A DNA stretch of 64,000 bases from an uncultured Candidatus Micrarchaeota archaeon. GTDB taxonomy: Archaea; Micrarchaeota; Micrarchaeia; Anstonellales; Bilamarchaeaceae. The stretch is from assembly GCA_963804385.1 (NCBI GenBank), contig CAWDQD010000004.1, positions 5,107 through 69,106 on the forward strand, read 5' to 3'. The notes below the pieces were generated by a model. It saw only the letters and a list, made by a program, of their open reading frames with translations, was not told where the DNA came from and made no database searches. Position 1 is the first letter of the stretch, and every line of letters starts with the position of its first letter. Positions 3,758 to 43,836 of the stretch are shown piece after piece. A program made the position numbers and the translations under genes.

Positions 3758-4228
3758 ATGGCATTGAAAGAGAACGATGTCGCGCCGGATTTCAGCCTTT
3801 TGGATACTTATAGCAAGAAAGTCTTTTTGCACGATTTCCTCGGCGGATGGGTCGTGGTGTATTTCTACCCGAAGGACCTGACCTCCGGCTGCACGATCGA
3901 GGCGATGGATTTCACGAAGCTGGCTCCTGATTTCGAGAAGGCCGGAGCCAAGATCCTCGGGATAAGCAAGGACACCTGCGAATCTCACATGAAGTTCGTC
4001 AAGGAGAAAAAGCTCGGGATAACCTTGCTTGCCGATCCGGATGGAGCGGTGAACAAGCTATATGGCGTATGGAGCGAGAGGAAGTTCATGGGCAAGGTGT
4101 TCATGGGCACCGAGCGCACCACGTTCCTGGTCGATGCTAACGGAAATATCGTCAAGATCTGGCATGATGTCAATCCGCTGGGGCACGCCTCGGCGGTACT
4201 TGAAGACGTCAAAGGAAGGCAGAAATGA
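3758..4228 (+). CDS. bcp: thiol peroxidase / peroxiredoxin Bcp
   Basis: The peroxidatic Cys motif VVVYFYPKDLTSGCTIEA is present, the size is 156 aa, and an SD-like GGGGGAG lies upstream. Confidence 0.9.
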   Translation: MALKENDVAPDFSLLDTYSKKVFLHDFLGGWVVVYFYPKDLTSGCTIEAMDFTKLAPDFEKAGAKILGISKDTCESHMKFVKEKKLGITLLADPDGAVNKLYGVWSERKFMGKVFMGTERTTFLVDANGNIVKIWHDVNPLGHASAVLEDVKGRQK

Positions 4229-4244
4229 AAAAGGGTGTGATGGT

Positions 4245-5516
4245 ATGAAAAACTCTGTATTCGTAATATCGATTTTCTTCCTGGTATTGGCCGGATGCGT
4301 AAGCCAGCCTCCAGGGGCTTCTCTAAGCCCTTCGCAGGCGACGGCCATAGCGCAGTCAAGCGCGGCATGCACGGCCGTAGGGAGCCTGACCGGAGCTTAT
4401 GTCTATAATAACATCACGATGACGTGGTGGTTCGACCTGAACGCGGTCAAGGCAGGGTGCTCTCCGGCATGCGTAGTCTATGACGCCAACCAGAGCACGG
4501 AGGTCAATTGGAGATGCACCGGAGCGATGCCTCCTGCAGCCGTGGCGCCTCTGGTGAGCGTCTCCGCGAACCCGCAGCTGGGGCAGATCCTGGTCGGCAA
4601 GGATGGGATGACGCTCTATGTGTTCCTCAAAGATGACATCAATACGTCAAGCTGCTATGGAACGTGCGCGACGATATGGCCGCCCCTGATATACACCGGC
4701 AGCGAGAACCTTTCCGGTCTCCCCGGAGTTCTAGGGACGATAACGAGGACAGACGGCTCCATGCAGGTGACCTACAACGGGATGCCGCTCTATTATTTCG
4801 CGAAGGACAAGAATGCCGGAGATACGCTCGGCCAATATTTCCTCAACATCTGGTTCGTCGCCAAGCCGGACATGACGACCTTCCCGGCGCTGACTTCGAA
4901 CGAGGCAATCGCGATAGCCCAAAAGAGCGCATGCGTGGGCTTAAACCTCACGAGCAACATGAGCTACGACCTCAACACCAGCACCTGGTGGATAAGCCTC
5001 GACACGGTGAAAGCCGGATGCTCTCCGGCCTGCGTCGTGTACGCGAACAGGACCGCTGACGTGAACTGGAGATGCACCGGCCTGGTCGTCGTCCAACCGA
5101 ATACGACTGTGTCTCCGCCCGCTGCGATGCCGGTCATCAAGATGTCTTCGAACTACAATTTCGGGGAGATCCTGACCACACTTGACGGCAAAGCCCTCTA
5201 TGTGTACAACAAGGACGCGGTGAACACACCGACTTGCACCGGAGCATGCGCCGATGCATGGCCGCCGTTGTTCCTGGGCGCGGGATATACCACGAACGGG
5301 ACCGGATTGCCCGGACTCGTGGGTGTCGTGGCATGGCAGAACGGCTCGCAGCAGGTGACGTATAACGGCATGCCGTTGTACACCTACAGCGGCGATTCGG
5401 TCGCCATGGTGAACGGCAATGGCATAGGCGGCACGTGGTATGTGGCCACCCCGCAGATGAACACGTTCCCCGTGACACCCGCGCCTAGCTCTGGCGGTTA
5501 CGGTGGAGGTTATTGA
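4245..5516 (+). CDS. secreted lipoprotein, internally duplicated (2 x [Cys-containing N-module + PF03640-type repeats])
   Basis: I moved the start to MKNSVFVISIFFLVLAGC, which has a lipobox. There are two copies of the module A(I/T)AIAQ...W(W/I)...GC(S/N)PACVV...VNWRCTG, each followed by GQILVGKDGMTLYVF...CYGTCA..WPPL type repeats. Confidence 0.75.
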   Translation: MKNSVFVISIFFLVLAGCVSQPPGASLSPSQATAIAQSSAACTAVGSLTGAYVYNNITMTWWFDLNAVKAGCSPACVVYDANQSTEVNWRCTGAMPPAAVAPLVSVSANPQLGQILVGKDGMTLYVFLKDDINTSSCYGTCATIWPPLIYTGSENLSGLPGVLGTITRTDGSMQVTYNGMPLYYFAKDKNAGDTLGQYFLNIWFVAKPDMTTFPALTSNEAIAIAQKSACVGLNLTSNMSYDLNTSTWWISLDTVKAGCSPACVVYANRTADVNWRCTGLVVVQPNTTVSPPAAMPVIKMSSNYNFGEILTTLDGKALYVYNKDAVNTPTCTGACADAWPPLFLGAGYTTNGTGLPGLVGVVAWQNGSQQVTYNGMPLYTYSGDSVAMVNGNGIGGTWYVATPQMNTFPVTPAPSSGGYGGGY

Positions 5517-11291: not shown

Positions 11292-11549
11292 ATGTCGGAT
11301 TTCTTTGCCGTCCGGAATCTGGACGAGAAAACGAAGCAGGATATACAGCAGTACGCCGAAGAGAAGGACCTGGCGATAGCCGAGGCCATACGGGAGCTCG
11401 TTTTCCTAGCCAAGGCGCACCTTGCCGAGAGACCGAAGAAAAAGTTCCGGAGCATCTTCGAGGTCCTTGACAAGATAAAATTCTCGAGCCCGGATCCGCA
11501 TTTGAGCCAGAATATCGATGCCATACTTTACGGGGCGAAACGCCAATGA
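11292..11549 (+). CDS. vapB: VapB-like antitoxin (ribbon-helix-helix type)
   Basis: This small protein sits directly upstream of the PIN gene and overlaps it by 4 nt. The N-terminal pattern is RHH-like. Confidence 0.65.
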   Translation: MSDFFAVRNLDEKTKQDIQQYAEEKDLAIAEAIRELVFLAKAHLAERPKKKFRSIFEVLDKIKFSSPDPHLSQNIDAILYGAKRQ

Positions 11550-11923
11550 TCGTCCTGGACAGCTCCTTTCTTGTCGCATTATTCCACGAGGGCGACACCT
11601 TGCACGGCCAAGCTTTGGAGGACGCCAGGCAATTCGAATCACGAAGGGAGCGGTTTGTCATCAGCGATAGCGTCCTCGGGGAAACCGCGACTGTCCTTCT
11701 CTATAATGCTGATCTGATTCGCTCGAAAGCGTTCATAGAATACGCGCTCGAGAACTATGATCTCTTCCTTCCGCAAAGGGACGACCTTGCACAGATACTG
11801 GATATCTTCCTTCAGCAGAAAAAAGAGATTAGCGTTGTGGACGCTTCAGTCATCTTTCTTGCCCGGAATCTTCACGGGATCCCGGCCTGTTATGATAAAA
11901 ATCTGTTGAAACATATAATCTAA
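11546..11923 (+). CDS. vapC: PIN-domain toxin VapC
   Basis: The N-terminal MIVLDSSFLVALF provides the first acidic residue, with later conserved acidic positions (VVDAS). The size is 125 aa. Confidence 0.85.
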   Translation: MIVLDSSFLVALFHEGDTLHGQALEDARQFESRRERFVISDSVLGETATVLLYNADLIRSKAFIEYALENYDLFLPQRDDLAQILDIFLQQKKEISVVDASVIFLARNLHGIPACYDKNLLKHII

Positions 11924-12014
11924 AAGAATAATAGAAAATATAAAAGAGATTGAGAATTATGTTCGAGACCATCATATGGGTAAGGATTAAATATTTGTGA
12001 TGGGGAAACATTTT

Positions 12015-12245
12015 ATGGCAAAAGTGAAAGAATACGACGTCATTGTCGAACGGGATGAGGACGGCGTCTATGTCGCGCATGTTCCTGAGCTTCCAGGGTG
12101 CCACACTCAGGGGGAGTCAGTAAAGGATGTCATGAAGAATATCGTCGAAGCGATCGAGCTATATCTCGAATACGTAAAAGACAAGATAGAAAATCCGATG
12201 GAGCTCATCGTTGTCAAGAAGGTCGCTGTCGCGGCGAGATCATGA
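12015..12245 (+). CDS. hicB: HicB-family antitoxin (UPF0150 fold)
   Basis: The motif VAHVPELPGCHTQGES is present. Alternative starts exist at 11997 (GTG) and 12000 (ATG). The stop overlaps the hicA start. Confidence 0.8.
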   Translation: MAKVKEYDVIVERDEDGVYVAHVPELPGCHTQGESVKDVMKNIVEAIELYLEYVKDKIENPMELIVVKKVAVAARS

Positions 12246-12472
12246 AAATCAGACCGATCAAGCATCAACAATTAATCAAACTGCTAGGTTCGATCGGATA
12301 TTTTCCAGTCAGACAAAAAGGCTCGCACCTTATTCTCGAGCACCAAGGAACAAAGAAGATAACGATCATTCCGATTCACTCAAAAGACATCGGAGTCGGG
12401 CTCTTGAGCATGATTTTGAAGGAAGTCGGACTTTCTCGGGATGAATATTTCAAGAAACTGAAAGATATTTAG
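12242..12472 (+). CDS. hicA: HicA-family mRNA interferase toxin
   Basis: MKIRPIKHQQLIKLLGSIGYFPVRQKGSHLILEH is the HicA/YcfA signature, including the catalytic His region. The start is an internal ATG of the listed 124-aa ORF. Confidence 0.85.
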   Translation: MKIRPIKHQQLIKLLGSIGYFPVRQKGSHLILEHQGTKKITIIPIHSKDIGVGLLSMILKEVGLSRDEYFKKLKDI

Positions 12473-12495
12473 AAAAGATAAAAGAGATTGAGAAT

Positions 12496-12810
12496 ATGGT
12501 TGATTCATTATTTAAAAACTTATCTTTGGATCGATGGTACAAACTTTTTGTCTTTCTCGGTATCGTTGGGTTTGTGATAGCTCTAACGATACCGGTTAAA
12601 ACAACCGTTCTTTCAAACAATGGACTAGCCATATTCTCTTTTGGATTATTTTTATTCGGAATCGGAGAATGGAAGACATGGAAACCACGGATTGACACAA
12701 ACTCATCAATTTCATATCTAGAAAAAACGTCCGATGGTGCCGGTGATATAATCCAAATGATTGCAGTATTACTTATGTTGTTATCAATTGTTCTTTCAAT
12801 TGCCATATAA
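12496..12810 (+). CDS. small membrane protein (3 predicted TM helices)
   Basis: The ORF is hydrophobic and sits at the edge of the AT-rich islet. Confidence 0.45.
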   Translation: MVDSLFKNLSLDRWYKLFVFLGIVGFVIALTIPVKTTVLSNNGLAIFSFGLFLFGIGEWKTWKPRIDTNSSISYLEKTSDGAGDIIQMIAVLLMLLSIVLSIAI

Positions 12811-12825
12811 TAAAATATCATCCCA

Positions 12826-12846
12826 GTAAACCCGATTTAGGTTTAC
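12826..12846. repeat. inverted repeat GTAAACC-n7-GGTTTAC
   Basis: I read this directly from the sequence. The same GGTTTACT word recurs as direct repeats at 13001-13008 and 13033-13040. Confidence 0.6.
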
Positions 12847-13000
12847 ATCGTCACAGTATCCCAGAAACAGTTCGAAAGTCCTGTTTTCCATTCTTTTGCC
12901 CAGTTTCGTCCGTGTAAGCCCTATTGCATGGTCAGGATCTACCGGTCAATATCGATATGGTGAACCATGGTGCTGGAATGGCTCAAAACGCTTACTATGC

Positions 13001-13040
13001 GGTTTACTGATACAGTTTAGAATAAGAAAAATGGTTTACT
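13001..13040. repeat. two direct copies of GGTTTACT spaced 32 bp
   Basis: I read this directly from the sequence, in the non-coding stretch downstream (3') of the minus-strand ORF 13050-13376. Confidence 0.6.
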
Positions 13041-13049
13041 AAATAACGG

Positions 13050-13376
13050 TTATTCGAACCATTTATCGCAGGTGGGTCTAACAAACACAACCTGCTCAGT
13101 CACGTTCAGAGTGAATCTTCCAAGACTGATCGCGAACTCAGCCGATTCGCTAGATTGGCCAGCTGGGATGAAGATAGTCCATGATTTGCCGATGTGCTGG
13201 TCTACTAATGTTGAGCCGATCAATCTCTTCATCTGCTCGGAAGTCGGATGAAGCGAATTGAGATCATGTCCAGGTAGGGCGCACACCAGTTTTCCTAATC
13301 CTGTTTCCCGTCGTTGCTGTAATTGCTCCCTCATGTGTACTATTATGTGATGGCAGATATAAAAATATTTCACCAA
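13050..13376 (-). CDS. hypothetical protein (orphan, AT-rich islet)
   Basis: This is only an ORF with no motif recognised. A more likely start is the ATG at 13334 (MREQLQQ...). Confidence 0.35.
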   Translation of the reverse strand: MVKYFYICHHIIVHMREQLQQRRETGLGKLVCALPGHDLNSLHPTSEQMKRLIGSTLVDQHIGKSWTIFIPAGQSSESAEFAISLGRFTLNVTEQVVFVRPTCDKWFE

Positions 13377-13473
13377 AAAGCAGGCGTTTAGGCCTACCTC
13401 CAGATAAGAAACATGTCTGAAAAATGGGTTTAACGTCGATAGAATTACATGGAATAGAATGAAGCTAAAATAG

Positions 13474-13504
13474 TATTAGAAATTCTAATATATACTTATC
13501 TAAC
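13474..13504 (-). promoter_or_regulatory. TATA-like element plus perfect palindrome TTAGAA-a-TTCTAA (copy 1)
   Basis: A roughly 31-bp block is shared with 13998-14030 with 2 mismatches. On the minus strand it reads GTTAGATAAGTATATATTAGAATTTCTAATA. Confidence 0.5.
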
Positions 13505-13523
13505 AGTTTCCAGGGCCTGAAAA

Positions 13524-13880
13524 TCACTGATGCGATTCCGAAAGTATGCCCATGGATCTGAACTCATTTTTCTTTGGTGAACCATCGCTATGTGCGGCTT
13601 GATACTTATTTTCTGCACAGATGAAATCCACACTGGTAAGCCAGGCACCCAGCTTCCTATCTTCCAAAGCTTTCCTCGCCTCTTGGTCACAGGCGGCCTT
13701 GAACTGATTGAATTCTTTTCTTTGCGTTTCACTAATGAGTCGTTGAGGTGGCGGGAAACCGAATTTTACAACCCCCAAGCTCCAAGCGAATGCGAATCCG
13801 ACGATTGCGGTTTTTAAAAGTGGGTGTTTGATCTCTCTGGGTGCTTTGAACCTAGGATTATGAACAGACACATATACCAT
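13524..13880 (-). CDS. hypothetical membrane-anchored protein (orphan)
   Basis: One N-terminal TM helix (TAIVGFAFAWSLGVV) is predicted, and no family is recognised. Confidence 0.4.
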   Translation of the reverse strand: MVYVSVHNPRFKAPREIKHPLLKTAIVGFAFAWSLGVVKFGFPPPQRLISETQRKEFNQFKAACDQEARKALEDRKLGAWLTSVDFICAENKYQAAHSDGSPKKNEFRSMGILSESHQ

Positions 13881-13997
13881 GATTTATTTGCGCTTCGATA
13901 ATATTTAAACCTTCTCTTTATGTCGTTATCAACCACATAATTATCTTACTTACACAATGAAGAGGGTAAACCAGCTCAAAAGAGTTGAATATAAGAT

Positions 13998-14030
13998 ATT
14001 ATTAGAAATTCTAAAATATACTTATATAAC
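13998..14030 (-). promoter_or_regulatory. TATA-like element plus palindrome TTAGAA-a-TTCTAA (copy 2)
   Basis: This is the second copy of the conserved block. On the minus strand it reads GTTATATAAGTATATTTTAGAATTTCTAATAATA. Confidence 0.5.
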
Positions 14031-33148: not shown

Positions 33149-33958
33149 TCATCTTCCGTAAATCGGTTTCCCTTTGTGGTATATCTTCCCATTTTTTATA
33201 TCAGACGAGACACTCCCGATATCGCCGCATACATAGATATCCCCGCCGCCCATCTGGACGCCGCAGTTCTCCAGGACATTCCCCTTCACGTGGATCTTGC
33301 CGCTGAACATCTGCATCCCGCAATTCGTGCCGGCGTTTCCGAGCACATCTATGGTGCTCGCAATCATGTACCATCCAAGGTTGTTTCCCGCATTACCAGT
33401 CACGTGGAGTGAACCGCCCCGCATGCAGCCACCGGCATCATTGCCTACGCTGCCATCGACCGTGATGCTGCCGCCCTCCATATGGAGGCCGCAGTTGCCG
33501 CCGAGATTGCCATATACGAATATCGTTTTTCTATTTTGATAACCAAGATAATCGATTTCTCTGAAGAGATGCGATGTCTCCACATCATATCTCTTCCATC
33601 TCCCTTTGCTGATCAGGGCGGTGAGGAATAATCCGGCTTTGTTATTGAATCCTTCTTCTTCCTGATAGGTAGCCAGACGTAAGCAGAATTCCCTGACGTC
33701 CTTCCTAGAGAATCCAGTGCCGGTTATGACGGAGAGGCAATCCTTGAGGAATTTCTCGGCTTCCGTCATCCTTACAAAATAGTCTCTGCAACTACCTGCC
33801 TTTTTCCACGCGGCTTCCATAGCGTCAACCTTTCTGTTGGCCTTGATCACCATTATCCTGACGTCCTGGCCAGATTCCTTAGAGAATCTGCTGAACATGC
33901 TGGAAGCGGCAAGCGTTGGAGGGATTACTTTCCTTCGAATCTGTGATGTAGCACGCAT
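33149..33958 (-). CDS. GXGXG-type beta-helix protein with unrecognised N-terminal domain, paralog 1
   Basis: Six consecutive 19-residue turns are present (GNLGGNCGLHMEGGSITVD / GSVGNDAGGCMRGGSLHVT / GNAGNNLGWYMIASTIDVL ...), as in the GltB C-terminal and FwdC domains. The shared N-domain motif is KAGLFLTALI...HL...IDYLGY. Confidence 0.75.
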   Translation of the reverse strand: MRATSQIRRKVIPPTLAASSMFSRFSKESGQDVRIMVIKANRKVDAMEAAWKKAGSCRDYFVRMTEAEKFLKDCLSVITGTGFSRKDVREFCLRLATYQEEEGFNNKAGLFLTALISKGRWKRYDVETSHLFREIDYLGYQNRKTIFVYGNLGGNCGLHMEGGSITVDGSVGNDAGGCMRGGSLHVTGNAGNNLGWYMIASTIDVLGNAGTNCGMQMFSGKIHVKGNVLENCGVQMGGGDIYVCGDIGSVSSDIKNGKIYHKGKPIYGR

Positions 33959-33962
33959 AGCA

Positions 33963-34841
33963 TCACTTGTCCACGACGAATCTCCCGTTATGGAAGGTTT
34001 TCCCGCCCTTGATGTTCGTTGAAAGCTCGAAAAAATCGCCCAGCAGGTATAACCTCCCGCCAGTCATCCCCTCTCCAACAACTTTGCCCGCATCCCCCAA
34101 AACTATAACCACTCCATTTTTCATGTCAAGGCCGAGTTCAAAACGGGTATTGCCACGCACGGTTATCGTGCCGCCATCCATCATCTGTCCGGTGCCATCG
34201 CTGCCGTTACCAAAAACTTCGATAGCACCACCCCTCATCTTACGACCGATACGTTCGCCGCCATCGCCAAAGACCGATATCCTTCCCCCAGACATCTCGC
34301 ACCCGAGGTCGTATCCGGCGCGCCCATTTATAGATATCAACCCTCCGCGCATATTGGAGCCGGCCTTTCCCCACGCGTCCCCATCCACTTGTATGGAGCC
34401 GCGTTTCATTTCACAGCCCAAGTATTGATCCACATCCCCCTTGACCATGATGTGTTTTGTGTTTCTATACCCTAACGAGTTGATTCGCTGGTCTAGATGA
34501 CTGGTATGTATGACAAATTCCTCATCCTTGCATTTGTTGATCAATGCGCTTAGGAATAATCCTGCCTTGGTCGGGAAACTCTCCTCCCCCTGGAAGGAAA
34601 TGAGGGCAAGCGAAAAGCTCTCGATCGCTGTCGAATCGACTTCGATGGATTTCAAAGACTTGCAGATCGTTTTGTAGTACCACAATTCTAATTCCAGTAA
34701 GGAATGCCATGCAGAAACCAACCGCGCGAGCTTCGGATCTTTCTTGGTATCCAATGCGCGGGCTGCCCTCTCCGGCTCGGATTTGTAATTGCCGAACCGT
34801 CCTGCCGCGAAGCATCTTCGCTCAGCCTGTTGCAGAATCAT
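33963..34841 (-). CDS. GXGXG-type beta-helix protein, paralog 2
   Basis: The architecture is the same as paralog 1. I moved the start to the ATG at 34841 (MILQQAERRCFAAGRFGNY), which aligns with the N-termini of the other two paralogs and gives an ATGA overlap with the upstream gene. Confidence 0.75.
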   Translation of the reverse strand: MILQQAERRCFAAGRFGNYKSEPERAARALDTKKDPKLARLVSAWHSLLELELWYYKTICKSLKSIEVDSTAIESFSLALISFQGEESFPTKAGLFLSALINKCKDEEFVIHTSHLDQRINSLGYRNTKHIMVKGDVDQYLGCEMKRGSIQVDGDAWGKAGSNMRGGLISINGRAGYDLGCEMSGGRISVFGDGGERIGRKMRGGAIEVFGNGSDGTGQMMDGGTITVRGNTRFELGLDMKNGVVIVLGDAGKVVGEGMTGGRLYLLGDFFELSTNIKGGKTFHNGRFVVDK

Positions 34842-35920
34842 TCCGGCCAGACCTCTTTCCTCGCAGCTTCGAGCATAGAACGGACCTGCTCCATAGGATC
34901 GAAAATGTCCTTTCTGGCGAGGCTTCCGATGAAGTGGGATAACCTGCGCCAACGATTAGCCATTACAATTTCTCCATTGTGGAATATCATGCCTTTAGTG
35001 TTATGTGAAGCGTACCATGAGGAGCCGCCAGTTGTCCAATGCAATCGCCTCTCGCTATGGCTCCACAAACTATCATAGGTTCCAAGGAGGTAAATCTTTC
35101 CACCCTCCATGCTGCTGCCGACACCCCGGCCGGCATTGCCCTTGGAAATTATCATCCCGCCGCGCATATAGCAGCCAAGGCCGGACCCCACATCGCCTTC
35201 GATTACGAGCGTGCCTTTGGCCATGTTGTTTCCAGCGTCTTTTTTGCAGGAGCCTTTGAGGATGACCAATCCACCTCGGAGGTCATCGGCGAAGCAGTGC
35301 TCTGAACTAGCACTCGCATCTCCGTGTATGATGATAGCCCCTCCGGCCGCTCTTGAAGCTGAACTTATCCCGACATTGCCCTGTATTTCGGCATAGCCGG
35401 ATTCCATGTCATGGCAGGTGAACCAGCCCGAGTTCCCGTTCACTATGAATGCGCCTTTGCTCATATGTCCGCCAGCCCAGCCTCCGGCATGGCCTTCAAT
35501 GGTGAGGCGCTTCTTGTTGTGATAACCAAGATAATCAATGGGGTTCTTGAGGTGAGTGGTATGTATCACGAATTCCATATCATGGCTGGTATTCACCAAT
35601 GCACTCAGGAAAAGACCTGCTTTCTGGTAAAAGCCTTGTTCGTCCTCGATCTGTGCGAGTGCCAGAGAGAACATCTCGACATCTTTCGGCGTTGCGCCGA
35701 TTCCGTTCAAAAGCACGACTAACTTGGGATAATCCTCCCAATCATATCTTGCAGAGCCCTTGAATTCCTTCCATTTCGAGAAGATGAGTTCCTGGACAGA
35801 ATCGGATTGGACATGGGAGTTCCTGATTTGCTTCTCAGTTTCGGCTTTGAATCCACCGAATCTGCTGGAAGTTGCTGCTCGTGAGATTCTTCGTTCCGAA
35901 TCCGTGGCCATTGTCTGCAT
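34838..35920 (-). CDS. GXGXG-type beta-helix protein, paralog 3 (with about 45-aa C-terminal extension)
   Basis: The architecture is the same as the other two paralogs. The turns are more degenerate, and there is an extra tail after the conserved ...IFHNGEIV end. Confidence 0.75.
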   Translation of the reverse strand: MQTMATDSERRISRAATSSRFGGFKAETEKQIRNSHVQSDSVQELIFSKWKEFKGSARYDWEDYPKLVVLLNGIGATPKDVEMFSLALAQIEDEQGFYQKAGLFLSALVNTSHDMEFVIHTTHLKNPIDYLGYHNKKRLTIEGHAGGWAGGHMSKGAFIVNGNSGWFTCHDMESGYAEIQGNVGISSASRAAGGAIIIHGDASASSEHCFADDLRGGLVILKGSCKKDAGNNMAKGTLVIEGDVGSGLGCYMRGGMIISKGNAGRGVGSSMEGGKIYLLGTYDSLWSHSERRLHWTTGGSSWYASHNTKGMIFHNGEIVMANRWRRLSHFIGSLARKDIFDPMEQVRSMLEAARKEVWPE

Positions 35921-35922
35921 GG

Positions 35923-37725
35923 CTATCCACCTGTGAGCAGCGTCTCTGAAAGCGAGTTGAACCCCTTGCGGGTCTCTCCTATCACGATGCGGGGCGTGTC
36001 TTTTTCGTCATCCAGTTTGAAGACCCTGATCTTCCCGCTATACTCGTTTAGTTCCTGCGCGAAGCCCTGCGTGAGCACGATCGTGGCCCGGTTTAGTTCG
36101 GCCCGTTCCTCGAAAAGCTGGAGCACCTCGTTCAGGTTGGCGATGCCCCCATCTGTGAAAAGAACGACATCGAGCGATTTGGCCGAGAACGCGTTCTCGA
36201 TATGCCCCATGGAGATGGCGACCTCTTTCTTCATGAATTCGCGCCCGAGATACCTGAGGTCCCTCTCCGGATTTTCACCATACAACCTAGCTGCTTCAGG
36301 CCCGAGCATCTTCCTTATCATTTCCACATCGGTAACTGTTCCGCCGCCCTGGAATGCGCTTATCGCCCCGAGAGCCGAGTCCAGATCCCTGGTGTAGGGG
36401 AGGTAGAACGAGCTTCCGCTGAAGTTTATCACACCTACCTTGGTTTCCTGCAGATGATAGGAACGCGCAACGCAAAAACCGCCCAAGACCGCGTAGGATT
36501 TCAGTTGCTTCGGGTCAGGCATGCTCCCGCTGCTGTCTATGACGACCAGCAGGTGCGGGACCTTGTAATCCGTTGTCTGGATAGGCCGCTCGGTTATCCT
36601 AACCTTCCTGGTGATGCCCGGGAGAAGCAGGCCTCCGGAGCTTCCTGGCAATGCGAGATCCGAATCCGTCCCTGGCCTCCATCTCTCGGTATCGCTCCAA
36701 GCTCGAGCCTTGCCCTCTGTATCGAGAAGCTTCTTCGTCGTGATGATCGGGTATTTCCTAGACAGTTCTTTGTAGTATTCGATGACTTCGGGGTCTATCT
36801 TGAGCTCTCCTTCCGAAGTTCCGATCGATCGGATTCCTGATCCGGAGGCTGGGACTTCCGCGCCTTTGGTTTTGAGCCATTTCACGAAGCGTTCGCGTTC
36901 GCCTTTGGTCAGTTTGTATGAAACCTCCCTCAATGCGTCTTTGATCTCTGAGGGTGTGGTATTCCTCAATGTTTCGTCCACATCCCCGTCTTTGGGGACT
37001 CCGATTCCCAAACCGAGTTTTCCGCAGCCACCTTTAGGGGCGTATTTTTCCATCATATCCAGGATTATGTGCCCGAAAGTGAACACCCCTTGGCGCATCT
37101 TCTCATGATCCACATTGAGGAAATCCACCTCCTTCATCTTTTCGAAGTACGGCGCCAGCTCCTCAAGCAACTCATAATCTCGTCCGGCCTGAAAATGGAG
37201 GAATTTGAGCATCACAGACCGGACATTGCGGTTAAGCTCATCGTCGTATGTTGTCTGGATCGAATTCCTCATATCCATGATCGCGGATGTCCGCTGCTCC
37301 TGCAGGACAGCAGCCGTATCGTTGGCCATATCCATATACGTCTGCAATATGAACCCACGGGTACCATCTCCGCTATTTCCTTGAAGGATTCTCTCCTTGG
37401 GGGTAAGGTTCTCCTTGGTGAGTCTGCTTTTGTGGAACAGGTTATCGATCATGTACGCTGCAAGGAGAAGAGTCGCCAGATCCCTGGGGAACACCATGTA
37501 ATGACCGATCTCATGGGCATATATCCCTTCGAGCATGTTATCGACCGGAAGTCCGCTCACCTTGACGGCGTTCTCTACGAAACTCGTGTCGACAAGCACG
37601 GCGTTCTTCTTGAAATCGTAGCATGCGCCGCCATTGAATCCGCCTTTCACGAATTCCGGCTCCCGGACCCCAGGGTAATGGAACCAGCCCCTAACCTTAT
37701 CCCAGGTCTTTCTGCCGTCATCCAT
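35923..37725 (-). CDS. HExxH metallopeptidase-like + VWA domain protein (DUF2201/COG3864-type)
   Basis: The N-terminal part has YAHEIGHYM (HExxH). The C-terminal VWA domain has an intact MIDAS: VVIDSSGSMPDP, GGGT and VLFTDGG. Confidence 0.85.
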   Translation of the reverse strand: MDDGRKTWDKVRGWFHYPGVREPEFVKGGFNGGACYDFKKNAVLVDTSFVENAVKVSGLPVDNMLEGIYAHEIGHYMVFPRDLATLLLAAYMIDNLFHKSRLTKENLTPKERILQGNSGDGTRGFILQTYMDMANDTAAVLQEQRTSAIMDMRNSIQTTYDDELNRNVRSVMLKFLHFQAGRDYELLEELAPYFEKMKEVDFLNVDHEKMRQGVFTFGHIILDMMEKYAPKGGCGKLGLGIGVPKDGDVDETLRNTTPSEIKDALREVSYKLTKGERERFVKWLKTKGAEVPASGSGIRSIGTSEGELKIDPEVIEYYKELSRKYPIITTKKLLDTEGKARAWSDTERWRPGTDSDLALPGSSGGLLLPGITRKVRITERPIQTTDYKVPHLLVVIDSSGSMPDPKQLKSYAVLGGFCVARSYHLQETKVGVINFSGSSFYLPYTRDLDSALGAISAFQGGGTVTDVEMIRKMLGPEAARLYGENPERDLRYLGREFMKKEVAISMGHIENAFSAKSLDVVLFTDGGIANLNEVLQLFEERAELNRATIVLTQGFAQELNEYSGKIRVFKLDDEKDTPRIVIGETRKGFNSLSETLLTGG

Positions 37726-37749
37726 AACCCATCACGTTCATTGCTGTGA

Positions 37750-39105
37750 TCAGATTTTTTCGTAGAATGCCCCCTCGGGCGCCTTGTATTGGCGAATCAT
37801 GTCTTGCATCAATGGGTGGTCAAATTGGTTGCCAGCTTGGATGGAAGCGAGATCTGCTTGAGTGAGAGTCCTGGACTGTATCCTTGCTATGAAATTCTTC
37901 ATAGGCTGGATGCACTGCCCATATCGGAGGTGCACCTCTTGGACGAGTACTTTCGCCAGGTCTATCGATTGGCTATCCCCTTCGACGCGCTTGTCCCCAT
38001 GGGCATCCTTATAATCGTCAGTGAAGCCCGCTTTATGGGCGATTATATATGGAAGCACGTAACGGACATGATCGATTGAAACATCCTGCTGCAGGAACCA
38101 TGCCAGCGCCTTCGAATACGCCATAGCTGCCATCATGCTCCTCGGGCTGAAGCTGTGCTTCACGCAGATGCCCGCATACGTCTTATCGTGCGTGTCATCG
38201 CTTATGGGATCCGAGACGCGTTTGTAGCCGTATTTTTCCGAGAAATTTATCTCTGCTGCGAAAGCCTGCAGGAAAAGCATCGCGTCGTTGCCGTTCTTGG
38301 TCATATCCATCCCGTATATCTCTTTCTGCACATCTGCTTTTTCTTCAGCAGTCAAATAGCCGGCTATCGGCCTGTTCTTCAGGTACGCTGAGAATTGGGC
38401 ATACTCCTTTGAAAGCTCCTTGAGCGCATCTCCGACATAATCCGGCTTGCACAGTTCGCTATTGACAGCCTGCCTCGCCCCATCAAGATCGAACATCAAT
38501 AATGTGCTGAGCGGAACCTGCTCCGTGACGATGTCGAGCCGGTCTTTTAGCGCCGGCAGGAATCCGTTTTCATGGTTCCCGGTCCTTTCGTTCATGGTCG
38601 CGAATGTGGGTTTTTTCCCTTCATAGAGAGAATGGTTCATATAGTTCCATCTGCCCGTGTCTATGCCTTGGAGTATGACGTCCTGGGAATCGAGCGGAAG
38701 ACGGTTCGCCTCGTCGATCATCATGACTGAAAGGGCGAATGAACCTTGCCATATGATCGATTCCTCGCCGGTCGCCAATCTTCCATAATGCGGCCTTGCG
38801 ACGATCTTCTCCTCGTATTTCTGCGGGTGGCCTCGGACCTCAAGCGCATCGTAAAGGTCGTATGGGAGCCCGGAGAGCTTGGATGCTAGTATCTTCGCTC
38901 CGGTGGTCTTTCCCCATCCTGGCTCGCCTACGAGGAGATGGTTCTTGTCGAGAAGATAGGTGAGCGCCATGAAGACGAGATTCTTGGGCATTACACGGTC
39001 TGCTGTCGGACCTTCGCTAAGAGGAGCGAAGTGGAATTTAGTCGTTATCTCGCTTAACGCTTGATAAACTTTAGTTCGGGGATCCATCTCTTTTGCTTTA
39101 GCCAT
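37750..39105 (-). CDS. MoxR-like AAA+ ATPase
   Basis: It carries Walker A LLVGEPGWGKTT, Walker B VMMIDEANRL, sensor-1 FATMNE, LKDRLDI, and sensor-2 region SFSPRSMMAAMAYSKALA. Confidence 0.85.
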   Translation of the reverse strand: MAKAKEMDPRTKVYQALSEITTKFHFAPLSEGPTADRVMPKNLVFMALTYLLDKNHLLVGEPGWGKTTGAKILASKLSGLPYDLYDALEVRGHPQKYEEKIVARPHYGRLATGEESIIWQGSFALSVMMIDEANRLPLDSQDVILQGIDTGRWNYMNHSLYEGKKPTFATMNERTGNHENGFLPALKDRLDIVTEQVPLSTLLMFDLDGARQAVNSELCKPDYVGDALKELSKEYAQFSAYLKNRPIAGYLTAEEKADVQKEIYGMDMTKNGNDAMLFLQAFAAEINFSEKYGYKRVSDPISDDTHDKTYAGICVKHSFSPRSMMAAMAYSKALAWFLQQDVSIDHVRYVLPYIIAHKAGFTDDYKDAHGDKRVEGDSQSIDLAKVLVQEVHLRYGQCIQPMKNFIARIQSRTLTQADLASIQAGNQFDHPLMQDMIRQYKAPEGAFYEKI

Positions 39106-39185
39106 ATGTCCACCTAGTAATATGTGGTTCTTGATGTGCTTGAAAGTATTTATAAACAGTGTGTTTTATGATGGAAAAAAATAGA

Positions 39186-39629
39186 TTATGAATAGATGTC
39201 GGTGATATCCCTTCCGGAGCCGCCTTTCAGCTTCATCTTCATCGCTACGTAAGACGGGAATGGTTCGCGGCGGTCCAATCTGTTGGAAAGGGCCTCGTAG
39301 ACATCGCACATGCACAATCGATCGTCATCCGTCTGCACGAGCGGCCTCATCTCGGGGTGCTCACGGACTATCTGGGCATACGAATCCTTGAAGAGGGCGA
39401 ATTTGACTACATCGTAAAGCGCATTGGCCTGCTTATTGTCCATCAATGACAATGTGCCTGTGAACGCTTCCTCCCCTAGATTCCACGCGGATCTGATCCT
39501 GAGCCAGTTTTTCCGGACGTCAGGTGTTATCACTGCCTTTGCCGGAGCTGGTTTAGCCGTCGTAGCGGATTTATCAGGGACTTTCTTCCCGTCCTTATTC
39601 GCTTTTTCCTGCGCCAAGATCGTCACCAT
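39186..39629 (-). CDS. hypothetical protein, first gene of the MoxR/VWA operon
   Basis: The N-terminus is Lys/Ala/Pro-rich, the remainder is predicted helical, and no family is recognised. Confidence 0.5.
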   Translation of the reverse strand: MVTILAQEKANKDGKKVPDKSATTAKPAPAKAVITPDVRKNWLRIRSAWNLGEEAFTGTLSLMDNKQANALYDVVKFALFKDSYAQIVREHPEMRPLVQTDDDRLCMCDVYEALSNRLDRREPFPSYVAMKMKLKGGSGRDITDIYS

Positions 39630-39737
39630 GCCTATGTTCCACGACTATCTTTAAACATCATTCGCTGGACAGGAAAGTTTCTGATACAAAGATATATAAA
39701 TGACTTCATCGCGTAGAATATCAAACAATAGGAAAAA

Positions 39738-40032
39738 GGAGGTGTAGCAAATGGAAAACAGCAACATATCGAATCTGCCGTGTTCTACTCATTTTATGCG
39801 CCTTTGCTACACCGTCATCGCAAAGTGGCGTGCGAATTTGTAGGAGCTAAGGGACCCTAAAAAAAGGGTGTGACGCCCGAAACTCCTGCGCCCGGAAAAA
39901 ACGCGGACAGAAATTCCGTGTTAGGGGATTTAGCGATAACATCATGGGTGCTTGCCGTCGGGCTTTGCCCCATGATACCTACAGCGGTTGACTGACAGGG
40001 AAACCTGCGGTCATATCCCTTGCATCAAGGGA
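39738..40032 (+). ncRNA. structured intergenic segment (candidate leader or small RNA)
   Basis: Several inverted repeats are present: GGTGTAGCAAA (39741-39751) with TTTGCTACACC (39803-39813); ATCATGGG (39941-39948) with CCCATGAT (39969-39976); CAGG-GAAA-CCTG (39996-40007); and TCCCTTG-cat-CAAGGGA (40016-40032). The strand and the boundaries are not established. Confidence 0.3.
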
Positions 40033-40047
40033 AAACCGGTGATTTAA

Positions 40048-40311
40048 GTGGTTGAATTCGAGGTTCCCGATGGGCCTGAGGCCCCGGAGCCAGGAGAGGA
40101 GAGGATAGTAGTAGACGACGAGGATATGGAGTTCGTAGCCCACAAGAGGGGGCGGCCGAAGAAGCTCCAGGGCCCCGAGGTCCTGGAGAAGCTCGTCCAG
40201 ATGTATTTCGTGGAGCGGATGTCCATGAGAGAGGTCGCGGACAATCTCGGCGTCTCGCACATGAGCGTCTATCGTATGCTCAACGATCCGGCCATCGAGC
40301 TGCTCATCTGA
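40048..40311 (+). CDS. small helix-turn-helix DNA-binding protein
   Basis: The C-terminal MSMREVADNLGVSHMSVYRML is HTH-like, the N-terminus is acidic, and the start is a GTG. Confidence 0.6.
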   Translation: MVEFEVPDGPEAPEPGEERIVVDDEDMEFVAHKRGRPKKLQGPEVLEKLVQMYFVERMSMREVADNLGVSHMSVYRMLNDPAIELLI

Positions 40312-42262: not shown

Positions 42263-42344
42263 TGTTTAAAGGACATGTTATTATTGCATGTCGCGTACCT
42301 CGCACACTGCTTCCTCGATCTCCGACGTGTGAGTCAGAAATTTT

Positions 42345-43836
<1,492 letters not shown>

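Follow-up and report, generated by a model that had tools for sequence, protein, structure and literature searches.

What might a MoxR-like ATPase, a protein that carries both an HExxH site and a von Willebrand factor A (VWA) domain, and a set of GXGXG beta-helix proteins do together? The question is raised by six minus-strand open reading frames (ORFs), g1 to g6, that were recovered within positions 33149-39629 of a 64-kb stretch of archaeal contig CAWDQD010000004.1 (the whole stretch is called the window; Table 1). MoxR/VWA pairs are among the most widespread poorly understood AAA+ machines, and a client is known for only a minority of them. In this cluster the ATPase (g2) and the VWA protein (g3) are accompanied by three beta-helix paralogs (g4 to g6), and the same combination recurs in archaea and bacteria. 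With moderate confidence, and by analogy with better-known pairs, we favour the interpretation that the beta-helix proteins are clients that the ATPase/VWA pair recognizes by an N-terminal tag, the whole being a self-contained, ATP-driven remodelling module.

A first-pass annotation of the window had described g1 to g6 as one tightly packed operon with a gene combination that was not recognized as a described system. The spacings between successive genes, recomputed from the sequence, agree exactly with that annotation: 80, 24, 2, -4 (an ATGA overlap) and 4 nucleotides. The g5 start is the ATG inside the overlap (34841), and the g6 start is that of the 269-residue version. Both are backed by paralog alignment of a conserved N-terminal motif, and by the gene calls made independently for three further metagenomic contigs, which carry an identical ATPase. 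Because homologs of all six proteins are found in the same order in other genomes, the six-gene arrangement is more than chance.

The combination does appear to be undescribed, in that no curated family, defence model or paper in the literature searched covers the trio of ATPase, VWA protein and beta-helix protein. Searches of Pfam, NCBIfam and PADLOC with all six proteins, and of Pfam and NCBIfam with bacterial and Archaeoglobus homologs, returned generic domains and no system-level family. The literature searched contained no paper describing a GXGXG/MoxR/VWA association.

Conservation and expansion of the trio

The trio is syntenic in related genomes, as its proposed association requires. 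The comparison covers 87 loci, of which 80 were kept from 185 relatives of g3 (one genome per species, alignment-seeded scan) and seven came from exact look-ups; three are near-identical copies of the window, and 84 loci are left without them. When all ORFs were searched iteratively, 72 of the 87 loci proved to have a g2-type ATPase and 73 to have GXGXG proteins (160 genes), in both archaea and bacteria. The ATPase and beta-helix genes invariably share the strand of the VWA gene and directly adjoin it. Where a gene is missing, the locus is in many cases short or carries the match at the end of a contig.

Hosts include DPANN archaea, Archaeoglobi, Methanocellales, Marsarchaeota, Desulfobacterota, Nitrospirota, Binatia and Latescibacterota. 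Among the hosts identified, Archaeoglobus veneficus, with a 1:1:1 version of the module, is the sole cultured one. The order ATPase-GXGXG-VWA, with one GXGXG gene of about 230 codons, is found in Desulfobacterota, Binatia, Latescibacterota and Methanocellales, and the order ATPase-VWA-GXGXG, with one or two GXGXG genes, in Archaeoglobi and Nitrospirota (Thermodesulfovibrionales). Arrays of 3-13 GXGXG genes on both sides of the VWA gene are found in DPANN and Marsarchaeota; there are 13 copies in locus L016, 12 each in L007 and L010, 10 in L009 and 3 in the window. The bacterial module is a stable 1:1:1 unit. Each DPANN array has one ATPase gene and one VWA gene for its 3-13 tagged paralogs.

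No fourth conserved component was detected: in an all-against-all clustering of 784 neighbouring ORFs, no family occurs in more than 10 loci. The neighbour families that do recur are housekeeping genes (UvrA, Lon and similar), and between lineages no relationship exists among the genes directly upstream of the ATPase. Because no further family is conserved, the ATPase, VWA and GXGXG genes form a self-contained three-gene unit.

The beta-helix paralogs are mostly lineage-specific tandem duplicates that share 25-82% identity. Between L009 and the window, identity is 58% for the ATPase and 51-56% for the VWA protein, and only 29-36% for the best beta-helix pair. By this sequence measure the beta-helix paralogs diverge faster than the ATPase or the VWA protein.

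Tandem expansion that is specific to lineages, together with this faster divergence, is also what might be expected if the trio were an NTP-dependent conflict system of the MoxR-vWA type, with the beta-helix paralogs as sensors or effectors. MoxR-vWA cores do occur in conflict systems (PMC7159879). However, PADLOC gave no significant match for the six proteins (best rows at E >= 0.025 and about 12 bits), and g3, the sole query in this search, has no relatives in plasmid, phage or IMG/VR viral-contig collections. The genes around the trio are housekeeping genes (glutamyl-tRNA synthetase [GluRS], ribonucleotide reductase, 16S rRNA, UvrA, Lon), and among the neighbours there is no effector, vWA-MoxR-associated protein (VMAP) or signal-transducing NTPase (STAND). 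The constant 1:1:1 composition in bacteria also argues against such a system, which we consider very improbable.

Relatives are numerous in sequence databases. A profile search of 1.84 billion cluster representatives returned 263 clusters at E <= 1e-30, and a bacterial-seeded search returned at least 951 clusters at 90% identity. Among the 120 matches listed, names are "hypothetical protein", "VWA domain-containing protein" or similar, with one evident mislabel.

The ATPase

The first-pass annotation had identified g2 as a MoxR-like AAA+ ATPase with Walker A (GEPGWGKT), Walker B (IDEANR), sensor and SPR sensor-2 motifs. All of these motifs are present, and their key residues are invariant. Across 22 diverse homologs, K66, D131/E132, N172, R189 and S320xR322 do not vary; they correspond to Walker A and B, sensor 1, the arginine finger and sensor 2. 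Class membership is borne out by Pfam, with scores of 32.1 bits for AAA_5 (cut-off 22) and 24.5 bits for AAA_lid_2 (cut-off 22.7), and both domains were detected again in bacterial and Archaeoglobus homologs. A GHPEQTEEK segment is conserved in g2 homologs where the helix-2 insert is expected.

A single-sequence search of the PDB with g2 found no relative. With a profile of the g2 family, the best match is the MoxR-family protein 2r44 (2e-11), followed by the Mg-chelatase subunit ChlI/BchI (1e-5). No NCBIfam subfamily model, whether of NorQ, CbbQ or another curated group, matched g2. By sequence, g2 is thus assigned to the MoxR/chelatase class (clade 7), outside any named subfamily. ATPases of the Desulfobacterota type (for example, in L028) bear a Cys/His motif, C..GCHY..Y.C, at the place where the DPANN equivalent reads SDDTHD.

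The HExxH/VWA protein

The motifs that the first-pass annotation reported for g3 are all in place: HEIGH at residues 71-75, DSSGS at 397-401, GGGT at 460-463 and TDGG at 524-527. Residues H71, H75, P80, D132, S363, P369, D397, S399, S401, T463 and D525 are invariant in an alignment of 20 homologs. The DSSGSM sequence of the MIDAS, a metal ion-dependent adhesion site, is exact in 69 of 78 family members, and seven more have near variants.

An AlphaFold2 model of g3 has a predicted local distance difference test (pLDDT) score of 78. In this model, the N-domain has a small three-stranded sheet, followed by a helix with HEIGH and then by a helical middle region. A long beta-hairpin, with the invariant S363-x-G-x3-P369 loop at its tip, precedes the VWA domain. 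The VWA domain itself (residues 391-590) is modelled mostly at pLDDT 65-91, except for one DPANN-specific insertion. In a whole-chain Foldseek search, nearly all matches are VWA domains at probability 1.00, including CMG2, MDN1-MIDAS (8ql1) and NorD (9qhe). The Pfam model VWA_2 scores 20.1 bits, under its cut-off of 27. Sequence motifs and predicted fold together identify the C-terminal domain of g3 as a VWA domain with a complete MIDAS. By sequence, g3 has no relative of solved structure. Its N-domain found no fold match, the whole-chain Foldseek search having returned VWA domains only.

The kinship of g3 with the DUF2201 proteins (PF13203 plus PF09967) that the first-pass annotation suggested did not hold. 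Neither model matched the window protein at E <= 0.1, and among 20 family members one had a weak match to PF09967 (E 0.005) and none matched PF13203.

The HExxH site suggests that g3 might be a zinc peptidase and that the trio might be a split, FtsH-like two-component protease. The VWA/MIDAS domain or the ATPase would then recognize the tag of the beta-helix proteins, and the tag, with or without a helical prodomain, would be cleaved to mature or to destroy them. The motif is intact in g3 of the window, all 14 full-length DPANN members retain the Glu, as does most of the Archaeoglobi/Nitrospirota-type clade (in the form HELNHW), and the common N-terminal peptide that many paralogs carry looks like a leader or propeptide. 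The predicted sheet plus HExxH helix, with invariant D132 as a possible third ligand, also fits. However, in the Desulfobacterota type (gene order ATPase-GXGXG-VWA), about half of the family, all 38 members have Gly, Ala or Ser in place of the Glu, and these members keep the tag, the MIDAS and the ATPase. Their version of the motif is H[G/A]xxHYxxCP (for example, in L028), whereas the DPANN form is HEIGHYMVFP. Because the catalytic Glu is lost throughout this clade, proteolysis is not a family-wide mechanism. Furthermore, no peptidase family in Pfam or NCBIfam was matched, and no peptidase was returned by Foldseek, in a whole-chain search dominated by VWA matches. A protease is therefore an unlikely account of the trio, although it has appeal for the DPANN clade with its intact HExxH.

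H71, H75 and D132 stay invariant in the members without the Glu as well, and the bacterial clade adds Cys residues in both the VWA protein and the ATPase. The Cys/His motifs of this clade may form a lineage-specific extra metal site. These residues would suit a chelatase-like insertion of a metal or cofactor, of the BchI/BchD, CobS/CobT or NorQ/NorD type, in which HxxxH (with Asp or Cys) hands over the metal and the beta-helix protein is the recipient or a substrate-holding subunit. The ATPase profile does match ChlI/BchI, there are weak NCBIfam matches to BchD, BchI and cobaltochelatase models, and NorQD inserts iron (PMC13036017). However, the NCBIfam matches reach 15-20 bits against curated cut-offs of 467-779, and no BchH- or CobN-like gene for a third subunit is conserved among the neighbour families of the loci. 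Likewise, visual inspection of beta-helix alignments revealed no evident ladder of Cys or His residues, and we know of no metal or cofactor bound by FwdC-type beta-helices in solved complexes. We rate this alternative as quite unlikely, below the protease.

The beta-helix proteins

The 19-residue turn reported for g4 to g6 is supported by a sharp peak at 19 in the autocorrelation of glycine positions. There are seven clean turns in g5, five strict and two or three degenerate ones in g4, which bears an extra C-terminal extension, and five plus a terminal one in g6, which aligns with its paralogs over its full length. The expected membership in Pfam GXGXG (PF01493, cut-off 32.5) applies to g4 (41.0 bits) and g5 (40.0 bits), and g6 falls below the cut-off at 22.5 bits. 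A ladder of Cys residues in the turns of the window proteins was considered as a metal site and was dropped, since visual inspection did not make it evident in bacterial orthologs.

An AlphaFold2 model of g5 (pLDDT 91) consists of a low-confidence segment (residues 1-30), a four-helix bundle (36-103) and a beta-helix (108-292). The last part has the fold of FwdC, subunit C of formylmethanofuran dehydrogenase: Foldseek superimposes it on FwdC (5t5i_C) with a root-mean-square deviation of 1.2 A and 35% identity over 155 columns, and the FhcC fold was matched as well. For the four-helix bundle and the tag, the whole-chain Foldseek search gave no significant match in FwdC or in the rest of the PDB.

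Because of this likeness, the paralogs might be genuine FwdC subunits, or counterparts of domain 3 of glutamate synthase (GltS), in a metabolic enzyme for which the ATPase/VWA pair would be a maturation chaperone. Homology is clear (phmmer against FwdC chains gives 1e-15, in addition to the close superposition), and public annotation gives several homologs the FwdC name. However, g4, g5 and g6 score 79.1, 103.2 and 81.0 bits (8e-23 for g6) with TIGR03122, the FwdC equivalog model, for which the cut-off is 130.65, and 64.8, 97.5 and 50.5 bits with NF042910, for which it is 340. Partner genes are missing: FwdA/B/D, FhcA/B/D and GltB/GltD were not among the 20 window ORFs scanned against Pfam, a set that covers every candidate of at least 330 residues, and no Fwd, Fhc or Glt partner was in the top ten recurrent neighbour families of related loci. 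The first-pass annotation had likewise noted no such partner in the window. The unmatched tag and helical domain, and DPANN hosts with up to 13 copies, are also difficult to reconcile with an enzyme subunit, and this explanation is largely refuted, with little probability left to it. With the synteny of the trio, the sub-cut-off scores and the missing partners agree with the proposal that the beta-helix proteins belong with the ATPase/VWA pair; g4 to g6 are independent of Fwd and GltS.

In public annotation, P0078, P0081, P0082, P0084, P0089 and other homologs are labelled "formylmethanofuran dehydrogenase subunit C". Because the window proteins score below the curated FwdC cut-offs, this label is likely a systematic mis-annotation of tagged beta-helix homologs. 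It could mislead metabolic reconstructions in lineages such as DPANN, which to our knowledge do not carry the remaining subunits of the enzyme.

The shared N-terminal tag

Within each genome, all beta-helix paralogs have a common short peptide at their extreme N-terminus. This tag is the best-conserved segment among paralogs, with a mean pairwise identity of 0.43-0.75 versus 0.10-0.30 in the next segment and about 0.3 overall; the remainder of the proteins is down to 25-40% identity. In the g5 model, the tag region (residues 1-30) has a pLDDT of 42-52, versus 90-99 for most of the remainder. A conserved peptide within a low-confidence tail is what is typically seen in a linear motif with a binding partner.

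The Micrarchaeota tag reads MAGRFGxYxPExExxVR. In L004 the tag is NPFxGxKPExExPER or DSRIFKGFKPETE, in L016 it is ALKKKSLEESLSGHT, and in L020 and L014 it is LxDLExPxPE. Single-copy orthologs from bacteria (n = 34) start with MKNPFExFK, in which N, P and F are at least 80% conserved. Bacteria, Micrarchaeota and L004 share an approximate core, [N/G][P/R]F-x2-[F/Y/L]K with a Glu after it; this core was drawn up by eye and is not a fitted motif.

The tag might occur apart from the beta-helix. In a Nanoarchaeota locus, the protein encoded between the ATPase and VWA genes has an NPF-type N-terminus, a helical segment and a similar glycine/leucine-rich stretch without a beta-helix. Two DPANN genes in the ATPase-VWA interval, in L021 and L034 (Table 1), encode NPF-type N-termini with no beta-helix detected, and L021 has a helical segment. 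The Nanoarchaeota locus suggests that the tag-bearing part is the constant coupling element.

A proposed remodelling module for tagged clients

In NorQD, CbbQO and CoxDE, the adjacent conserved gene encodes the client. In NorQD, the ATPase ring serves as the docking site of the adaptor, the client provides an acidic residue that completes the MIDAS ion, and ATP hydrolysis strains the client (PMC13036017). This principle is also established for CbbQO and Rea1/Midasin.

By analogy, g2 would form a ring that couples to g3, as in NorQ/NorD, CbbQ/CbbO and Rea1. The metal site of the g3 MIDAS would capture the conserved Glu-containing N-terminal peptide of g4 to g6, perhaps with a contribution from the zincin-like N-domain, and the conserved S363-P369 hairpin could serve as a pore finger. 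ATP hydrolysis would then remodel, assemble or release the beta-helix proteins, which, taken as clients and not as a scaffold, would be dedicated substrates or exchangeable working parts of the machine. In the DPANN archaea, tandem duplication would have multiplied the beta-helix genes, with the ATPase and the adaptor each kept as a single copy.

Several observations favour the role of client. The beta-helix gene is the only conserved third gene, and the low-confidence tail of its product carries a conserved tag with a Glu. Many tagged paralogs stand beside a single ATPase and a single adaptor, the residues of the MIDAS and of the ATPase do not vary, and no other client is encoded nearby. The adaptor role of g3 is supported by the match of its VWA fold to the ring-docking adaptors MDN1-MIDAS and NorD.

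Other observations weigh against this interpretation. The tag diverges strongly in some DPANN lineages (L007, L016 and L017), and because the tags of these loci differ, one common recognition chemistry is unproven. The tag might also be bound by the ATPase pore or the zincin-like domain, or might target the proteins to another structure. Moreover, some Archaeoglobaceae loci replace or supplement the GXGXG gene with a lipoprotein-like gene, and three of the four loci with such a gene have no detectable beta-helix gene. Because of these loci, the beta-helix is not strictly obligatory, and the lipoprotein-like gene may be an alternative third component.

The lipoprotein-like genes (Table 1) lie between the ATPase and VWA genes in loci of the Archaeoglobaceae type. 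Their products have 163-167 residues, with a signal peptide and a Cys lipobox-like motif.

As to what remodelling by the trio might accomplish in the cell, a more specific and rather doubtful possibility is that the trio belongs to a new class of tag-directed assembly machines, in which a MoxR-type motor and a MIDAS/zincin adaptor would load, mature or polymerize the tagged beta-helix proteins to build a higher-order structure inside the cell, for example a scaffold, a filament or an attachment apparatus. If so, DPANN archaea, with up to a dozen or more diversified paralogs, would devote over 1% of their genome (estimated at about 1 Mb) to this machine, possibly for an episymbiotic lifestyle. 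The presence of 3-13 paralogs in stripped-down DPANN genomes suggests that the system matters to the biology of these organisms.

If the beta-helix proteins are clients, then the client of this MoxR/VWA pair can be read from the genome, as the only other conserved gene, with a recognizable terminal tag and a simple, well-predicted fold. This would make the family a tractable model for substrate selection by a MIDAS adaptor.

Transcription units and divergent genes

The first-pass annotation treated g1 as an orphan, which it is not. Homologs with 45-50% identity are located directly upstream of the ATPase in the Micrarchaeota loci L008, L009 and L015, and none were found in other loci. Because its homologs are confined to Micrarchaeota, g1 appears to be a lineage-specific accessory. 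The protein is rich in Lys, Ala and Pro at its N-terminus, and its C-terminal part is helical and conserved, with the motif DDDRxCMxDxY. It has no meaningful match in Pfam, NCBIfam or PADLOC; in NCBIfam the lone row is for a phosphoglyceromutase model, which scores 16.6 bits where the cut-off is 366.

The gap between g1 and g2 includes an oligo-T run after the g1 stop codon and a TATA-like box, TTTATAAATAC, about 40 nucleotides upstream of the g2 ATG. The corresponding gaps in L008, L009 and L015 conserve this box, and a second TATA-like box, upstream of g1, is conserved across the Micrarchaeota loci. On these sequence features, the gap is probably an internal promoter for g2 to g6, and g1 probably has its own promoter. 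Because of the oligo-T run and the conserved TATA-like box, an arrangement of 1 + 5 genes (g1, then g2 to g6) is likelier than a single six-gene transcript.

Two small genes are divergent from g1. One is a micro-ORF with a strong Shine-Dalgarno sequence (GGAGGTG); ORFs of 30-32 codons with the same Shine-Dalgarno sequence and the pattern ME..S.C...Y....W..L are found at the same place in L008, L009 and L015. Based on its position alone, the micro-ORF may have an accessory or regulatory part in the system as found in Micrarchaeota. The other encodes a protein that has the look, by eye only, of a helix-turn-helix protein. It has homologs with 58-60% identity at the same relative position in the same three loci and no Pfam match at 1e-5, and is a candidate regulator of the system.

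Context of the window

The genes that flank the cluster are housekeeping genes, as far as they were scanned. Genes for GluRS and a class II ribonucleotide reductase are directly downstream, and elsewhere the window encodes deoxyhypusine synthase, a Dpo4-type polymerase, an archaeal fructose-bisphosphatase, ABCE1 and a 2-oxoacid dehydrogenase complex. The GXGXG genes g4 to g6 are the only three in the window.

A complete archaeal 16S rRNA gene stands alone, and no 23S rRNA, 5S rRNA or tRNA genes were found within the window. Because the 16S gene is present without 23S and 5S genes in 64 kb, the rRNA genes are unlinked. The 16S gene also establishes the window as archaeal, and the named relatives of g3 are from Candidatus Micrarchaeota, a DPANN lineage.

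A stretch of low GC content (0.41 in the 12001-14000 bin, versus about 0.53 elsewhere) lacks ORFs of 150 or more residues and contains AT-rich direct repeats of 41-45 nucleotides, about 530 nucleotides apart. A separate gene encodes a protein with four secreted repeats of the Lipoprotein_15 family (PF03640) and is unrelated to the g1 to g6 cluster.

Table 1. Coordinates of the cluster, of its putative promoter elements and divergent genes, and of features in related loci; unprefixed positions refer to the window
Feature	Position	Strand	Length (aa)	Description
g1	39186-39629	minus	147	Micrarchaeota-specific accessory protein
g2	37750-39105	minus	451	Divergent MoxR/chelatase-class AAA+ ATPase; Walker A ~38905-38928
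g3	35923-37725	minus	600	Putative HExxH/VWA adaptor; HEIGH 37501-37515; DSSGS 36523-36537
g4	34838-35920	minus	360	Tagged GXGXG beta-helix paralog 1; tag AATSSRFGGFKAETEKQIR ~35822-35878
g5	33963-34841	minus	292	Tagged GXGXG beta-helix paralog 2; tag FAAGRFGNYKSEPERAAR ~34758-34811
g6	33149-33958	minus	269	Tagged GXGXG beta-helix paralog 3; tag LAASSMFSRFSKESGQDVR ~33857-33913
g1-g2 gap	39106-39185	minus		Oligo-T run and TATA-like box
TATA-like box upstream of g2	39145-39165	minus		Consensus CTTTATAAACACTTTC
TATA-like box upstream of g1	39690-39705	minus		Consensus TTATTTATAAA.GTTTGTATCA
Micro-ORF	39751-39843	plus	30	MENSNISNLPCSTHFMRLCYTVIAKWRANL; divergent from g1
Helix-turn-helix-like gene	40048-40311	plus	87	Divergent from g1; candidate regulator
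16S rRNA gene	42344-43836	minus		Complete, archaeal, stand-alone
Low-GC stretch	~11300-14000			AT-rich direct repeats
Lipoprotein_15 repeat protein	4062-5516	plus	484	Four PF03640 repeats
Lipoprotein-like gene	L045:9351-9842			Archaeoglobaceae-type locus
Lipoprotein-like gene	L047:1518-2021			Archaeoglobaceae-type locus
Lipoprotein-like gene	L054:2206-2709			Archaeoglobaceae-type locus
Lipoprotein-like gene	L077:5473-5976			Archaeoglobaceae-type locus
Gene with NPF-type N-terminus	L021:9310-9951			DPANN, ATPase-VWA interval
Gene with NPF-type N-terminus	L034:1586-2389			DPANN, ATPase-VWA interval
g2 homolog	L028:7881-9275			Example of the Desulfobacterota-type Cys/His motif C..GCHY..Y.C
g3 homolog	L028:9980-11539			Example of the Desulfobacterota-type form H[G/A]xxHYxxCP

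Comparison with known systems

Among the known systems closest to the trio are NorQ/NorD and CbbQ/CbbO, which also comprise a single-ring AAA_5/AAA_lid_2 ATPase beside a large adaptor that has a C-terminal VWA domain with a complete DxSxS-T-D MIDAS, and in which the client is encoded alongside. NorD is among the structures that Foldseek matches to the g3 VWA domain (9qhe), and the part of its pore-inserting finger could be played by the conserved hairpin that precedes this domain in g3. However, g2 and g3 reach none of the curated models of these systems, and g3 has an HExxH N-domain. The proposed client is a soluble, tagged beta-helix protein instead of an enzyme, and its gene is present in up to 13 copies in DPANN.

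Rea1/Midasin shares an AAA_5-type motor with a MIDAS domain, and MDN1-MIDAS (8ql1) is among the best fold matches of g3. The Midasin MIDAS captures a conserved acidic residue of alternative clients, the ubiquitin-like (UBL) domains of Rsa4 and Ytm1, and pulls. In contrast to the trio, Midasin combines six AAA modules in a single giant eukaryotic polypeptide, which has no HExxH domain. Its clients have UBL domains, whereas those of the trio would have N-terminal linear tags on beta-helices.

FwdC, FhcC and the glutamate synthase large subunit's C-terminal domain have the same 19-residue GXGXG turn and the same right-handed beta-helix fold as g4 to g6. The window proteins differ in falling below the equivalog cut-offs, in their extra tag and four-helix bundle, and in having no FwdA- or GltB-type partner; their genes are linked to the ATPase/VWA pair instead.

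DUF2201 proteins, which combine a putative metallopeptidase domain (PF13203) with a VWA-like domain (PF09967), are often encoded beside MoxR ATPases. They share with g3 an HExxH domain followed by a VWA-like domain, beside an AAA_5 ATPase, but the relation is distant at best. FtsH likewise combines an AAA+ motor with an HExxH domain, and recognition of substrates by a terminal tag is possible in the DPANN clade. However, the ATPase of the trio belongs to another AAA+ clade, the domains are on separate polypeptides without a membrane anchor, and about half of the g3 family has lost the catalytic Glu.

Relative to known MoxR/VWA pairs, the new features of the trio would thus be a tagged, FwdC-like client, an adaptor with an HExxH domain, a broad distribution among anaerobes, and the expansion in DPANN.

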